A DNA stretch of 64,000 bases from the IMG/VR virus record IMGVR_UViG_3300036860_000057, positions 14,574 through 78,573 of that record. One strand, given 5' to 3'. The DNA comes from a virus. Every line of letters begins with the position of its first letter. The stretch's first letter is position 1. The notes below the pieces were generated by a model. That model had not been told where the DNA came from, made no database searches, and saw nothing but the letters and a program-made list of their open reading frames with translations. Made by a program: the position numbers and the translations under genes. Of this stretch, positions 4,569-17,067 are shown piece by piece.

Positions 4569-5804
4569 ATGGAGAATAGAATGTCAGAAGAATACCAGTT
4601 AGTAGTAGTAAGCAATAATAAGAGTATTGCAGAATCAGCTAATAGAAAAGTTAAATATACACCCACTGGACTAATTTTTAGTGGGGAAGAGCTTGTTGAT
4701 GAAGAGCGGGATTATCTGCATAACGCTAATGAGATGTTTAGGGTAGGAATGCAGTGGTGTGAGGGTGATCTTCTTGTTGATGATGATAAGACTCCTTATG
4801 GTGAGATGTATAAAGAGCGAATGAAGTCTACAGGAAAGAAGTATGGCACACTGGCAAATTGGAAGTGGGTAGCCAAGTCAATTGAGTTTTCACGGCGTCG
4901 TGAAAACCTCTCTTGGAACCATCATTATGAAGTAGTCCACTATGATCCAGAGACTCAAGATCGTCTCTTAGATTGGTGTGAGAAGGACCCACACACAGGA
5001 CAGAAGCATTCTGTCAGAGATTTAAGAAATCTTATTAATGCAGCTAAACGAATGGAAGTTGATACTCCCGCTCCCTCTGCTGGGTTGTCAGAGTCAATCT
5101 ATAGTGTATTTCGTGGTGATGTGTGGCAGTTGGGCAATCATCGGATCATGTGTGGAGATTCTTACAATCAAGATGATGTAGATAAACTACTGAGAGATGC
5201 TAAACCAACAGCACTAATCAGTGATCCACCTTATGGAATTGACTACAAGCCTAACTGGAATAAGTGGGATGGATCAGCATCAGACTTTAATCCGGTAGAA
5301 GGTGATGATCAGGACTTCGATCCAACACCTTTCCTAAACTACCTTATTGTCTGCCTATTTGGGGCTAATTATTACAGTCCTAAATTGCCTGTGGGCGGAT
5401 GGTTGTGCTGGGATAAGAGGGCTGGGGATGTAGTAAAGGATTCAATGTTGGGATCACCCTTCGAGTTAGCATGGTATCGATCTATCAGGACTACCAGAAA
5501 AGCTATCATGGTGCGTGTTCTACACGGTGGAGTAGTGAATGCTGATAGCTCAGAAGGCAACAATGAGAAGCGTCACCATCCTACTCAGAAACCTGTACAG
5601 GTTATGCGAGAAATACTAGAAAATCTTACAACTAACTCTGATGTTGTATATGATCCTTTTGCTGGCTCAGGTTCTACGCTCTTGGCCTGTCAGGAAACTG
5701 GAAGAAGTTGCCTAGCAATGGAAATTGATCCTGAGTATGTAGCGATTGTTTTACGGCGCTGGGAAAAAATGACAGGTGAAGTTCCTGTAAGATTGGAGTC
5801 TTAG
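4569..5804 (+). CDS. LmbU-like N-terminal domain fused to beta-class N6A/N4C DNA methyltransferase
   Basis: SDPPY (motif IV), HPTQKP, DPFAGSGST (motif I); N-terminal WCEGD..YG..WKWVA..SRRRENLSWNHH resembles LmbU family. Confidence 0.85.
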   Translation: MENRMSEEYQLVVVSNNKSIAESANRKVKYTPTGLIFSGEELVDEERDYLHNANEMFRVGMQWCEGDLLVDDDKTPYGEMYKERMKSTGKKYGTLANWKWVAKSIEFSRRRENLSWNHHYEVVHYDPETQDRLLDWCEKDPHTGQKHSVRDLRNLINAAKRMEVDTPAPSAGLSESIYSVFRGDVWQLGNHRIMCGDSYNQDDVDKLLRDAKPTALISDPPYGIDYKPNWNKWDGSASDFNPVEGDDQDFDPTPFLNYLIVCLFGANYYSPKLPVGGWLCWDKRAGDVVKDSMLGSPFELAWYRSIRTTRKAIMVRVLHGGVVNADSSEGNNEKRHHPTQKPVQVMREILENLTTNSDVVYDPFAGSGSTLLACQETGRSCLAMEIDPEYVAIVLRRWEKMTGEVPVRLES

Positions 5805-5805
5805 A

Positions 5806-6372
5806 ATGGCAGGGATTACTAGGATTCATATTAAATCTGATTCAAAGTATCTGGAAGAGAGATTAAAAATAGCACACGACTTTGAAGAACAGGCTAATGA
5901 TGTATATCGGAATTTATTTTATAATTTGGAGTTCCCTTTAGCAGATGGAGAAGAAGTTATAGAAGTACCTAAAGGTGACAGATTCGCAAGGTATGACTGG
6001 CAAGAAGGAATAGACATCATACTTGAGTTTAAGTATGGAGATGGTAAGGCTACACTACAGGAGAAGGTACTTACTTATGGGGAAAAGACTACTTTGACTG
6101 TAGAAGAAAATAAAGCTAGTGGTGCTAAAGGGGCATGGTATTACTGTACAGCACAGTATTATTCTGTGTTCTATGTAGTGGATAAAACTAAACCACAACT
6201 AGGATTTAGAGACTGGATAGTAGTCAACTTTGCTGCATTGAAATTACGTAGATATGGTTGGCAAATCCAAGATGGAATAGAAAGAGGAGAAACTTTTAGA
6301 TTTATAGACTTTTCTAAAATTAATTCAGATTGCATAATAGGAAGCAAATTCAAAGGTTCAGGAGCCTTCTAA
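5806..6372 (+). CDS. Hypothetical protein, possible PD-(D/E)xK nuclease-like
   Basis: D..EGID...QEK pattern; directly downstream of the methyltransferase. Confidence 0.4.
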   Translation: MAGITRIHIKSDSKYLEERLKIAHDFEEQANDVYRNLFYNLEFPLADGEEVIEVPKGDRFARYDWQEGIDIILEFKYGDGKATLQEKVLTYGEKTTLTVEENKASGAKGAWYYCTAQYYSVFYVVDKTKPQLGFRDWIVVNFAALKLRRYGWQIQDGIERGETFRFIDFSKINSDCIIGSKFKGSGAF

Positions 6373-7763: not shown

Positions 7764-8861
7764 TTAGTTCTTAGATAATGCTACAGCCTGCTTGAATGCT
7801 CCATCCATTGCCTCACCACGATCACCAATTAGAATATTAGTCATCTGCTTGGCTTTATCACCACGATATACATCACTGTGGTTGATCGTCTGAGTAATGG
7901 CTTGGAATCCACCATACACAGTGTCAGCAGCATAGCTGTACTCATTATTTAACTTCTGGAAATTACCACGAGCCTCTAGGCGAAGTTCACCAATGGTTGT
8001 ATTCCTCTTGTCCATCCAATCCTGCTTATCTTGTGCTACTACGCGAGTAGCATTAATCGCCTTGGAAGATGCACCTGCTGGAATGATACGAGCAAGCTCT
8101 AGTTCTCTAGGTTCTGCTACATAAGGAAAGGCAGACACCAGCAGTGAGTCAAGTCCATCTAAAGTCAATGGAGTTCTTAGCATCTGCTCGAATTGATGAA
8201 GTGCCTTGGTTCGTTCTTTCTCAGCAATCACCATCAGATCACGCCTAAATTCTAGCTCACGATGAATGTCTCCATTGTGAGGAATTCGATGCATCTCACG
8301 AGCGCTGCTCATTGCCAGCATATATGTGTTATAGCACACTTCACGAACTGTAGTAATTCCCCAGAAGGCTGCACCAGGGCCAGAACGATCATCTGATACA
8401 TGCAGATAGGTACGTGTCTTCTCAGTCTCAATTCCACCTACTTCATAGTCTTCCATGCGTAGAGTAATGAAGCTGATCTGCCAATCTTTCACCACTGCAC
8501 AAGTCTCAACAGGATATTTCTCGGATACTGGATCGAGGATTTTGCCAAGGTCCCTGTGTTGGATCATCTTGTAGCGATTGCCAATCCCACTGCGAACCAG
8601 TCTTGGTTCAGGGTCAGATGGAATAGGCTCACGCCACATATCGAAACGATTCTTCACAGGAATACGATGCACTTCTGTAGGCTTGCCATTCTCATCATAA
8701 GCCAGAGGATATTCTGAGTAAGCTGGATGCAGAGAATACTCGAAGTTCATTCCTGCCCATTCCAGTGCTTCAGATGCAATCATAGGGGTGTTGAACACCG
8801 GCATTTTCTCGTGCCATGCCCCTGTCTCGTATCCAGCACCAATGTTGAAGTAATCAGGCAT
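7764..8861 (-). CDS. DUF932 (LGT_TIGR03299-like) phage/plasmid protein
   Basis: AWH N-terminus, Y..IQH, TTVREVCYNT motif, GFQAITQ. Confidence 0.75.
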   Translation of the reverse strand: MPDYFNIGAGYETGAWHEKMPVFNTPMIASEALEWAGMNFEYSLHPAYSEYPLAYDENGKPTEVHRIPVKNRFDMWREPIPSDPEPRLVRSGIGNRYKMIQHRDLGKILDPVSEKYPVETCAVVKDWQISFITLRMEDYEVGGIETEKTRTYLHVSDDRSGPGAAFWGITTVREVCYNTYMLAMSSAREMHRIPHNGDIHRELEFRRDLMVIAEKERTKALHQFEQMLRTPLTLDGLDSLLVSAFPYVAEPRELELARIIPAGASSKAINATRVVAQDKQDWMDKRNTTIGELRLEARGNFQKLNNEYSYAADTVYGGFQAITQTINHSDVYRGDKAKQMTNILIGDRGEAMDGAFKQAVALSKN

Positions 8862-8903
8862 TGTTCTTTCCTTTCATATAAGTGTGTTTTATAGTCTAAT
8901 TAT

Positions 8904-8932
8904 ATTATATTCCTATTTTATAGTGTTGTCAA
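8904..8932 (-). promoter_or_regulatory. sigma70 consensus promoter
   Basis: TTGACA-N17-TATAAT on minus strand. Confidence 0.75.
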
Positions 8933-9311
8933 CCAACTTCCCATCTCTGAACTCAACAATTTCTACATAATCAGCAGTTCCTACATCCCAGCGAGGATTG
9001 AAGTTAGGATCATTGAATGTATCAATATAAAGACTCCAATCCTTACTATTTCCATATTGATTAGTGAGGTAATCATAGAAAAGAGATACAGGAGTCATAG
9101 TAACCAAACACGCCTCACATCCAAAGTCTGAAATTTCTCGTGCTCCATAGTGAATTAGATAAGCATGTTGGACGATACTTTCCTTGTCTTTATGAACCCA
9201 ATGTCTGATGTATTCAGCTACATTTTTGGCATTAAATCCATTATCACCTGCAATAACCTTGCAGACTACTTCTCCATCTACTACTACTGAAACGAGTCCT
9301 TGTGTTGCCAT
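8913..9311 (-). CDS. Hypothetical protein
   Basis: AAGGA RBS; CxxC. Confidence 0.65.
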   Translation of the reverse strand: MATQGLVSVVVDGEVVCKVIAGDNGFNAKNVAEYIRHWVHKDKESIVQHAYLIHYGAREISDFGCEACLVTMTPVSLFYDYLTNQYGNSKDWSLYIDTFNDPNFNPRWDVGTADYVEIVEFRDGKLVDNTIK

Positions 9312-9434
9312 TATTGATCCTTTCTAAACATGCACGCCAATATTGAACTACTAAAATCATTAAAACATTCTCTGATTTTCCCAATCAAGTGATTTTACTG
9401 TTCCATACTATGATTTCTAATTACCATATTGATG

Positions 9435-9501
9435 TGGACCTGCTTGGAGTCGAACCAAGTTCTTGTCCCAACCTACGGGACAATCGATACCCATCAGGCC
9501 C
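9435..9501 (-). ncRNA. RNA resembling the tmRNA tRNA-like domain, with no mRNA-like domain
   Basis: GGGCCUG/CAGGUCC-A acceptor with G3-U70; unpaired AUGGGUAUCGA D-loop; 7-bp stem; GAA linker; T arm CUUGG-UUCGACU-CCAAG. Confidence 0.7.
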
Positions 9502-9525
9502 ATTCTCATCTGCCCATATGATATT

Positions 9526-9726
9526 CTAGTTGTGTGCGTAGACGTAGGTTTCAGCAGAGTTACTAGCTCTGGCGAGTTCCCATGTCTTACTCTTCATCAG
9601 CAGCTTCTTCAGTCTGTCTGTCTTAGTTCCCAGAGGAAATTCCCGTAGGAATGGAAACTCTGTGAACCACATTTGACACACACCGGAACCATACAAGAAC
9701 TGAATACGGAATAATTTTCTCATCAT
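9526..9726 (-). CDS. Hypothetical basic protein between two tRNA-like elements
   Basis: AGGAG RBS before ATG 9726; the longer track start overlaps the RNA element. Confidence 0.55.
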   Translation of the reverse strand: MMRKLFRIQFLYGSGVCQMWFTEFPFLREFPLGTKTDRLKKLLMKSKTWELARASNSAETYVYAHN

Positions 9727-9756
9727 ATCTCCTGTGAGTGTGGGCAGATGAGATAA

Positions 9757-9802
9757 TGGTGCAGCAGAGACTCGAACTCTGTGTAGGCCCACCTACCACA
9801 CC
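9757..9802 (-). ncRNA. Minimal tRNA-like RNA (acceptor stem, short hairpin, T arm)
   Basis: GGUGUGG/CUGCACC-A acceptor, UAGG/CCUA hairpin, CAGAG-UUCGAGU-CUCUG T arm. Confidence 0.6.
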
Positions 9803-9863
9803 AGAATATGCACGTCACTGTCTATCTTGATTCTATAATCAGATCAGTGATTGTGTCAAGTGA

Positions 9864-10367
9864 TTAGTATTTGTTATGAAGGTGTTTCCAGACCTTTCCT
9901 AGTTTTATACGAGATATGGCAACTTCACTTACATTGTATATCTTAGCTATTTTACTCTGCTTGATTTTATTGCTATTTAGTAATTTTATTATCTCTATTA
10001 CTTGCTCTTCTGTTAATTTAGCACTACCATGATTCTCTCCAATAGACTTAACAATCCTTCCTTTGGATTTACAGTCTTTCATATTGTCATCTTGTGTACC
10101 TAGTTTGAGGTGATTAGGATTAACACAAGAAGGATTATCACAGAGATGCATCACTAGTTTATTATCCGGTATGTCTCCATTTACTAACATCCACGACAAT
10201 CTGTGTGCTCTGTATCTCTTGTGATCAATAGCAATAATTCCATAATTATGATGATCTTTGTGCCCTAACCATTCCCAGCACTCACTATCTGATTTCTTGT
10301 TTATTTTGCTCCAAAAGTATTCAATTGGATTCATCTTTCCAAATTTGCTCATAATTTGTTCCTTCAT
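9864..10367 (-). CDS. HNH homing endonuclease with C-terminal HTH
   Basis: CWEW, AHRLSW, HLCDNPSCVNPNHL; likely start at MSKF. Confidence 0.9.
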   Translation of the reverse strand: MKEQIMSKFGKMNPIEYFWSKINKKSDSECWEWLGHKDHHNYGIIAIDHKRYRAHRLSWMLVNGDIPDNKLVMHLCDNPSCVNPNHLKLGTQDDNMKDCKSKGRIVKSIGENHGSAKLTEEQVIEIIKLLNSNKIKQSKIAKIYNVSEVAISRIKLGKVWKHLHNKY

Positions 10368-10448
10368 TTACATGCACGTAGAAATATGCACGTCAGAATA
10401 TGAGTATTGACTCAAGTGATTGATCTCTAGTGATCTTTTCTAGTGATT

Positions 10449-10631
10449 TTAGTCTCCCATACTATGGTTCGATAAGGACAGAGAAACGAAAAGTCCCCCA
10501 AAAAACACGCCAATAAGCATTGAAACAAACGTTTCGTCAATGGGCAATCCAGACCAATATCTTATTCCTGTTGATATAATCATCATCATGATAGTTATCA
10601 ACGTTCCCCTACCAACCATTTTCCAGTTCAT
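10449..10631 (-). CDS. Small two-TM membrane protein
   Basis: Two hydrophobic segments, GAGGTG RBS. Confidence 0.55.
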   Translation of the reverse strand: MNWKMVGRGTLITIMMMIISTGIRYWSGLPIDETFVSMLIGVFFGGLFVSLSLSNHSMGD

Positions 10632-16753: not shown

Positions 16754-16809
16754 GGACTCTTCAGTGTAGCTAGTTAGCTACAGACTGGGGACAAGCCCCA
16801 GTTTCGTCC
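16754..16809 (-). ncRNA. Type II hammerhead ribozyme HH-A
   Basis: GGAC-GAAA-CUGGGG(cuugu)CCCCAG-UC^UGUAGC(uaacua)GCUACA-CUGAAGA-GUCC; complete core, three stems, GUC cleavage triplet. Confidence 0.92.
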
Positions 16810-16991
16810 TATAGCTCCCATCGGGGAGCATCACCTCGGCGCATCATCTCATCATTGACTAGTTCTAATTCCTTGCGTATCTGATCCTGGTATTCCTCAG
16901 TCTGATACAGATCAGGATCATCAAGAATAATCAGTAAGTCTAGACGCTTCCAAGAGATTTGTTCGTCGTCTAACTTCTGTAGACTTCTCAT
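16809..16991 (-). CDS. Hypothetical protein flanked by two hammerheads
   Basis: AAGGAG RBS before MRSLQK; the track start lies inside HH-B. Confidence 0.6.
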   Translation of the reverse strand: MRSLQKLDDEQISWKRLDLLIILDDPDLYQTEEYQDQIRKELELVNDEMMRRGDAPRWEL

Positions 16992-17006
16992 TATGTGACT
17001 CCTTGT

Positions 17007-17067
17007 TAGGCTCATCAGTACAGGCTATTACCTGTAGACTAGGGAAAGTATCCCTAGTTTCGTCCTA
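17007..17067 (-). ncRNA. Type II hammerhead ribozyme HH-B
   Basis: UAGGAC-GAAA-CUAGGGA(uacuu)UCCCUAG-UC^UACAGG(uaauag)CCUGUA-CUGAUGA-GCCUA; stem II has a bulged A. Confidence 0.88.

Follow-up and report, generated by a model that had tools for sequence, protein, structure and literature searches.

Trans-translation is the main route of ribosome rescue and quality control in bacteria, and full-length tmRNA genes are carried by phages such as the cluster C mycobacteriophages and phage G, with permuted forms in marine and crAss-like phages. A molecule resembling the tag-less RNA of phage DS6A reportedly inhibits tmRNA, a result ascribed to Mao et al. (2009) that concerns E. coli, not natural infection. 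The RNA itself, which corresponds to the tRNA-like domain (TLD) of tmRNA, is listed by Hudson, Lau and Williams (2014) as "Mycobacterium phage DS6A (TLD only)" (PMC4131195), who report that a molecule of this type, chargeable or not, strongly inhibits tmRNA, perhaps through titration of SmpB (PMC4131195). The 2025 tmRNA database paper likewise states that expression of the DS6A form in E. coli leads to inhibition of the endogenous tmRNA, and it covers CDS-less plastid forms of about 65 bp in Mallomonadaceae and discusses the jakobid mitochondrial form (PMC11915505). In standard tmRNA, the G-U third acceptor pair is the determinant for alanyl-tRNA synthetase (AlaRS), the deformed D-arm contacts SmpB extensively and the 5' end is made by RNase P (PMC3985003). 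Surveys of isolated phages with ARAGORN recovered full-length tmRNA in about 2% of genomes (PMC9004378); TLD-only forms are invisible to ARAGORN, the tool of those surveys.

Here we describe a 67-nt element on the minus strand of viral record IMGVR_UViG_3300036860_000057 (78.6 kb, rated 99% complete), located at 9435-9501 of the window, i.e. the whole stretch of 64,000 nt that was analyzed. As judged from its sequence, the element is a real phage gene for a TLD-only mini-tmRNA belonging to the family of the DS6A RNA. More precisely, it is a compact, divergent, short single-hairpin variant of this known kind.

Anatomy of the element

The element lies in a 214-nt gap with minus-strand ORFs on either side (9526-9792 and 8913-9311), and its parts are collected in Table 1 together with the surrounding features. 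Read from 9501 to 9435, sequence and fold match exactly what the sequence-only reading had described, namely the acceptor stem with G3-U70 and A73, the stemless GG..UCGA D-loop, the 3-nt linker and the T arm. Its remark that CCA is not encoded is likewise correct, as A73 is followed by CA, leaving CCA incompletely encoded. The acceptor strands pair in the same register in the alignments to the Rfam tmRNA family RF00023 and to R1, a covariance model of the viral family (see below), and the T arm matches the consensus GGUUCGAnUCC of the tmRNA TLD. Between the D-loop and the linker there are 21 nt, wholly inside one hairpin, which occupies the place of the tmRNA pseudoknots and tag reading frame and leaves no space for a resume codon, a tag frame or pseudoknots. 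Inclusion of a G-U closure extends the helix of this P2 hairpin to 8 bp, and the smaller, 5-nt loop that results is favored by the computed fold. The first P2 pair is U-A, as in 17 of the 101 family members aligned. Few forms are as short as the element, and among the short forms none has a longer or more stable P2 cap.

Table 1. Positions of the element, its parts and the neighboring features in the window
Feature	Position	Strand	Remarks
TLD-only (tag-less) mini-tmRNA gene	9435..9501	-	67 nt, G1 to A73; R1 60.8 bits
Acceptor stem, 5' strand G1-G7, holds G3	9495..9501	-	pairs with 9436-9442
Stemless tmRNA-type D-loop	9484..9494	-	11 nt, GG..UCGA; sequence, R1, RF00023
P2-equivalent helix	9463..9483	-	7 bp + 7-nt loop or 8 bp + 5-nt loop; fold -11.2 kcal/mol
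Linker GAA	9460..9462	-	3 nt; family consensus GAC; middle A at least 90% conserved
T arm	9443..9459	-	5-bp stem + 7-nt loop UUCGACU; sequence, R1, RF00023
Acceptor 3' strand with U70 and A73	9435..9442	-	3' strand 9442-9436, A73 at 9435
Second minimal tRNA-like element	9757-9802	-	46 nt; just after promoter-like site
Sigma-70-type promoter-like site	9830..9859	-	TTGACA, 18 nt, TAGAAT; 11/12, consensus match only
Perfect 13-bp inverted repeat	arms 9504-9516, 9741-9753		flanks 66-aa ORF

We assign the minus strand because of G3-U70 and the R1 scores of the two strands, 60.8 bits for minus and 13.1 bits for plus. A descriptor of the fixed features gave a single match in the window and none in 100 shuffles, and the pairs that it leaves free, four in the acceptor, three in the T stem and seven in the hairpin, are all standard. 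Furthermore, all 19 pairs modelled in R1 are intact, and the fold energy has a z of -3.4. The structure is beyond chance.

Standard annotation leaves the locus blank. The three calls that ARAGORN makes in the window are ordinary tRNAs at other sites, with no tRNA, tmRNA or tag at 9435-9501, nothing is reported there at Rfam gathering thresholds, and a permissive Rfam scan over 351 nt returned only tRNA-Sec at 13.8 bits. The absence of tmRNA from the latter is due to a filter effect, as a scan of the element alone against 4227 Rfam families recovers RF00023 as the best family, at 20.7 bits and with a gathering score of 47. Second is mascRNA (RF01684) with 20.5 bits, and the Rfam tRNA models rank under tmRNA. 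The RF00023 alignment runs over model positions 1-374 with 310 positions deleted, and places acceptor, D-loop (model positions 8-26), P2, linker and T arm in register. Though far under the gathering score, this match represents independent support for the tmRNA reading. The identity put forward in the sequence-only reading, a tmRNA TLD without the mRNA-like domain, is borne out by the top rank of RF00023 and by 60.8 bits on R1. In the tool check that it had named, Rfam places tmRNA first, yet under the gathering score, and the locus goes uncalled by ARAGORN.

BLAST of the element against phages yielded T-arm matches only, in addition to the permuted tmRNA of the crAss-like phage cr130_1, and an exact search of viral contigs with a 22-mer from its 3' half was negative. 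The cr130_1 gene (locus L002, 2472-2740) is a permuted two-piece tmRNA that scores 54.4 bits on RF04321; the 3' end of its acceptor piece and the next 15 nt resemble the element and its 3' flank, with 82% identity over 45 nt.

The viral family

We searched IMG/VR with a descriptor comprising the G3-U70/A73 acceptor end, the T arm, 15-45 nt, a GGnnUYGA D-loop and a GGG start, which was made from the element, so that about 22 positions agree with the family by construction. The same architecture is present in at least 120 viral contigs. According to ARAGORN, 119 of the 120 listed matches are not tRNAs, and a perfect 7-bp acceptor is found in 116 of them, only three of these pairs being fixed by the descriptor. 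A73 is followed by C in 107 and by CC in 31 of the 120 listed matches; with C common and CC rare, an incomplete CCA is the rule among them. Of 17 loci tested with RF00023, 15 pass the gathering score of this model, at 51.6-72.4 bits and always over model positions 1-374 with the middle deleted.

Lengths among the listed viral matches range from 57 to 86 nt and are mostly 76-80 nt. In the long members P2 contains an inner hairpin (AAAGCCGCACGCGGA type), which is present in most members and in DS6A and absent from the element. Direct closure of P2, as in the element, is seen in about 10 of the 105 unique viral members listed, including those at loci L007, L008, L026, L074, L075, L089, L108 and L118. 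Thus, the missing inner hairpin is a subclass trait and not an exclusion from the family.

Covariation in the family is strong. In a seed of 30 viral sequences, 96.7% of cells are paired and compensatory changes occur at 14 of 19 pairs; none of 500 shuffles reached the observed covariation score or percentage paired, and no slid register came near. For 101 sequences aligned to the model, an alignment that is model-fitted, the corresponding values are 96.4% and 15 of 19. G3-U70 is kept in 100 of the 101 aligned members, including DS6A and two second copies outside the descriptor selection, while in the remaining members G3-U70, A73 and the D-loop motif are fixed by the descriptor.

R1, the covariance model built from the 30-sequence viral seed with the element left out, scores the element at 60.8 bits with an E of 4.7e-14 (minus strand), the top value of the single-hairpin subclass. 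Viral family members reach 36-95 bits and true TLD-only RNAs of genome assemblies 51-84 bits, and the DS6A element (L124, 28478-28557) reaches 61.1 bits. Scores for a 72-nt group from Eremiobacterota are 33-45 bits and for descriptor matches with poor acceptor stems in bacterial genomes 22-36 bits, and the tRNAs in the window reach at most 21.8 bits (tRNA-Gly), tRNA-Trp scoring 8.4 bits. Since DS6A falls outside the descriptor yet attains 61.1 bits, and the look-alikes stay at 22-36 bits, circularity is controlled and 60.8 bits reflect real membership.

Domain-only homologues elsewhere in phages, for which the sequence-only reading had suggested a search, are provided both by the at least 120 viral contigs matching the descriptor and by DS6A with its 61.1 bits. 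A one-off deletion remnant or att-site fragment, which that reading had named as the outcome that would undo it, is not what we see: at least 120 loci are alike, the structure is complete and the 99%-complete genome has no tyrosine integrase. The novelty that it implied does not stand, as TLD-only forms entered the literature in 2009-2014 with DS6A, and the function that it proposed, SmpB titration or a block of trans-translation, had already been put forward as a hypothesis for DS6A (PMC4131195, PMC11915505).

TLD-only genes are common in uncultured phages and are found in a few cultured phages and in many bacterial assemblies. A cultured example is Streptomyces phage pSt2308 (PV588686.1, 33356-33433; H66), which holds a full-length, unannotated TLD-only copy that is 79.5% identical to that of L104. 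ARAGORN made no correct call on the TLD-only members, and the short forms also stay under Rfam thresholds. Full-length tmRNAs were called by ARAGORN over three members (L015 2976-3318, L076 4100-4442 and L117 10221-10616). We rejected those at L015 and L117, where the tags of 24-30 aa are implausible, Rfam aligns the 80-nt part only and the TLD 3' end is reused; the calls over the three members are probably artefacts, liable to mislead surveys. We found no paper in the literature on this RNA family at such scale.

Most of the genes stand alone, with a tRNA gene within 500 nt of only 25 of the 120 listed elements. Neighboring genes vary by clade: one clade has the RNA beside genes for capsid, protease and portal, in another a phrog_284 exonuclease gene ends exactly at the RNA start, and genes for endonuclease VII, YqaJ and helicase occur as well; no constant protein partner was found among the family loci examined. 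About 63% of members are co-oriented with each flanking ORF, as estimated from crude ORF calls. Two contigs carry two TLD-only copies each, L099 (5-81 and 1317-1392) and L029 (1298-1374 and 3208-3288), the second copies being found by the model and not by the descriptor. Between the copies of L099 there is a DUF3800-VIII RNA (RF03075, 796-867), and L053 has a GOLLD RNA (RF02032, 201.8 bits, 5769-6207, plus strand) some 400 nt from its TLD-only RNA at 5274-5353.

Several related elements were encountered outside the viral set. The 72-nt group occurs in MAGs of Eremiobacterota, Vulcanimicrobiota and Baltobacteraceae (L130, L132, L143, L152, L157, L172, L175, L193, L209 and about 40 loci more), often in two to four copies per contig. 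Its body is TLD-like, with G3-U70, A73, a long stemless UCGA-type D-loop and a GCC tail, and the bulged helix of about 8 bp ends in a conserved anticodon-like loop, YUGAYAC/A and also CCGUCAC or UCGAGAC; ARAGORN takes a few members for tRNA-Ile, Val, Asp or Ser. Possibly, the group represents an unusual tRNA-like family with alanine identity. An 87-nt, nearly identical element of Acidobacteria/Acidiferrum MAGs (L128, L133, L139, L158, L165, L167, L176, L207 and L211) has a TLD-like 3' half, a 6/7 acceptor and, in most copies, an encoded CCA, and scores 28.8 bits on R1 (L128). In addition, a contig with a Bathyarchaeia MAG label (L148, CAZVMT010000001.1, 219-295) holds a long-type TLD-only RNA of 72.5 bits, which shares 17 of its 18 5'-terminal nt with the element at 9435-9501 as well as the 3' acceptor strand and T loop. 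The 8 kb fetched from this contig and the window have no proteins in common. A tmRNA domain of bacterial type within a bin labelled archaeal points to a misbinned phage contig.

Genomic setting and proposed role

The element is surrounded by genes for an HNH endonuclease, a DnaN-like clamp and a DUF932 protein, along with small ORFs. Along the minus strand the order is promoter-like site, second tRNA-like element, a 66-aa ORF (9726-9526) without family match between the arms of the inverted repeat, and the TLD. The promoter-like site could, by its consensus match, drive a unit that includes the RNA, and no terminator-like site was found within 8800-10500. In the second tRNA-like element, the 7-bp acceptor includes U-G and G-U pairs and is combined with a 4-bp hairpin, a T arm of 5 bp whose loop is UUCGAGU, and the discriminator A; this second element scores 13.2 bits on R1 and lacks G3-U70. 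One arm of the repeat starts 3 nt after it and the other stops 2 nt short of the TLD; the repeat would be predicted to clamp the ends of an excised small mRNA. Such an arrangement points to a common transcript and to release by enzymes of tRNA processing.

Searches with the 132-aa neighbor, with the DnaN-like clamp and with an alignment of five clamps recovered no relatives of the locus in viral contigs, and a metagenome search for related loci gave a single locus, 28% identical. The clamp search returned four phage-type relatives (P0002-P0005), and the cellular homologues of the clamp lean to Chloroflexota, which hints weakly at the host. Neither SmpB nor a full-length tmRNA was found in the phage genome, and consequently any SmpB partner must be that of the host. 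Elsewhere in the window (16754-17067, minus strand), a chimeric Rfam match to hammerhead type III was noted, with 17.3 bits, an E of 0.71 and both the CUGAUGAG and CGAAAC cores.

We propose that the RNA would be transcribed with the leftward genes from the promoter-like site, its 5' end being cut by RNase P as in tmRNA and tRNA, its 3' end trimmed and the CCA completed by the host CCA-adding enzyme. G3-U70 and A73 would then permit charging by the host AlaRS, and the deformed D-loop and the elbow would bind host SmpB. Processing, CCA addition, alanylation and SmpB binding are here modelled on established tmRNA biology. Having neither resume codon nor tag frame, the RNA would be a competitor of host tmRNA for SmpB, and probably for AlaRS, EF-Tu and stalled ribosomes as well, with the outcome that SsrA tagging and trans-translation would be lowered during infection. 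By analogy to the DS6A work, from which these last steps are drawn, competition with host tmRNA and reduced tagging would rather probably be the net effect.

The same anatomy and family evidence would also be compatible with a tag-less rescue, in which the alanyl-TLD with SmpB enters the stalled ribosome and accepts the nascent chain, one alanine being added, before the ribosome is freed by another route, for example drop-off with peptidyl-tRNA hydrolase or an ArfB-type factor. If so, phage proteins made on truncated or processed mRNAs would leave the ribosome free of a degradation tag. We know of no release mechanism for such a rescue, and regard it as unlikely. Jakobid mitochondria keep a CDS-less tmRNA along with a targeted SmpB, for which help with incomplete mRNAs has been argued (PMC11915505), but tag-less forms argue against bacterial-type trans-translation (PMC3985003), and inhibition irrespective of chargeability, as reported in the 2014 paper (PMC4131195), is also difficult to reconcile with rescue. 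A different role, named as the alternative in the sequence-only reading and considered by us quite unlikely as the main one, is that of a processing or punctuation signal, with the TLD recruiting RNase P and 3' tRNA-processing enzymes to cut a polycistronic transcript, so that the small-ORF mRNA would receive its 3' end and the following mRNA its 5' end, and with the released RNA being jobless. The cassette layout supports such a role, the two tRNA-like elements bracketing a 66-aa ORF that is clamped by the 13-bp repeat, with a promoter-like site upstream and no terminator-like site in the same interval, as do the second-best Rfam match to mascRNA and the co-orientation, by crude ORF calls, of about 63% of the members. 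However, RNase P requires only the acceptor/T-arm minihelix, and retention of G3-U70 in 100 of 101 aligned members goes beyond this need; DS6A also keeps A73 and the UCGA-type D-loop, and the second element of the cassette does without G3-U70 and reaches just 13.2 bits on R1. Processing and TLD roles are in any case not mutually exclusive.

Two other identities were weighed for the element. Phages often integrate into ssrA and carry fragments (PMC9004378), the score falls under the Rfam gathering threshold, and the 3' half and flank resemble the acceptor piece of the cr130_1 permuted tmRNA, so that a dead remnant, be it a tmRNA deletion relic, an ssrA att fragment or a chance fold, was considered. 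It is very unlikely: both acceptor strands are present with 19 of 19 pairs intact, the middle is a perfect closed helix without a scar, there are at least 100 independent members with compensatory changes, and the descriptor gave no match in the 100 shuffles. The attachment-site idea was rejected on the grounds of the complete structure and the lack of a tyrosine integrase, the search being for the tyrosine type only. Least probable, to the point of being hardly credible, is a D-armless decoding tRNA that would use the P2 loop as anticodon loop, with U33 and the anticodon AGG, and insert alanine at CCU codons. The loop can indeed be drawn with 7 nt and U as second base, and the 72-nt Eremiobacterota family joins a TLD-like body to anticodon-loop-shaped loops, but position 37 is U and not a purine, the stem has 7-8 bp and not 5, the fold prefers a 5-nt loop, and short members cap the same helix with 4-6-nt loops (UUCG, GCAA) that are unable to decode. 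A canonical tRNA (RF00005) was likewise rejected, given the missing D stem, the 7-8-bp stem, U37 and the lack of an ARAGORN tRNA call.

Returning to competition with host tmRNA, by imitating just that end of tmRNA to which SmpB and AlaRS bind, a phage RNA of this sort would offer a compact natural means to inhibit or modify trans-translation. The idea has been published for one phage, DS6A, and the element adds a very short, divergent form from an unrelated phage. Why phages alter trans-translation and which minimal RNA features SmpB demands are open to test, and for the latter a natural ligand of 67 nt would be a convenient tool. A wider view, which we offer tentatively and regard as doubtful, is that tag-less mini-tmRNAs might be a widespread, largely unannotated phage takeover tool that switches off or redirects trans-translation. 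In the present phage such an RNA would sit in a processing cassette of promoter, tRNA-like element, stem-clamped ORF and TLD, in which the same RNase P cut might free the inhibitor and trim the neighboring mRNAs, shielding proteins from stop-less messages from SsrA tagging.

Comparison with known systems

Among RNAs with a similar outline, mascRNA/MEN-beta types (RF01684) and alanine-accepting minihelices share the acceptor and T-arm mimicry of the element. The former are eukaryotic and unrelated by descent, and G3-U70 minihelices are classic AlaRS substrates; unlike the element, both lack the conserved tmRNA D-loop and P2. Standard tmRNA (RF00023) is matched end to end in the TLD, whereas its pseudoknots, resume codon, tag frame and stop are missing in the element, which therefore provides no tag template.

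A tmRNA of jakobid mitochondria was reportedly described by Jacob et al. (2004). The CDS-less tmRNAs of these mitochondria and of Mallomonadaceae plastids are, as the element, natural, TLD-sized and without tag frame. They differ in their vertical descent from full tmRNA and in their imported SmpB, and they are thought to aid rescue rather than to compete with a resident full-length tmRNA.

The closest counterpart is the TLD-only RNA of DS6A (tmID 11587 of the tmRNA Website). DS6A is temperate, has an integrase and infects M. tuberculosis, in contrast to the present phage, in which no tyrosine integrase was found. The DS6A RNA is 80 nt long with an inner hairpin in P2 (CCGCACGCGG type, common to most of the family), whereas the element has 67 nt, with a loop of 5-7 nt closing P2 directly as it does in about 10% of members; its linker GAA takes the place of the GAC usual in the family. 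Neither record annotates its copy, and both copies have a homologous DnaN-like clamp gene nearby, gp34 in DS6A (L124, 28680-29831) and 10697-11824 in the window, the two proteins being 25% identical (E 2e-10). The distance from TLD to clamp, on the same strand, is 123 nt in DS6A and 1196 nt here; since no more than these two among about 120 listed loci show the pairing, it may be a coincidence. Beyond their surroundings, the two RNAs have in common the 7-bp acceptor with G3-U70 and A73, the stemless UCGA-type D-loop with P2 directly after, a short linker and the T arm, both dispense with tag frame and pseudoknots, and their scores on R1 are 61.1 bits for DS6A and 60.8 bits for the element.
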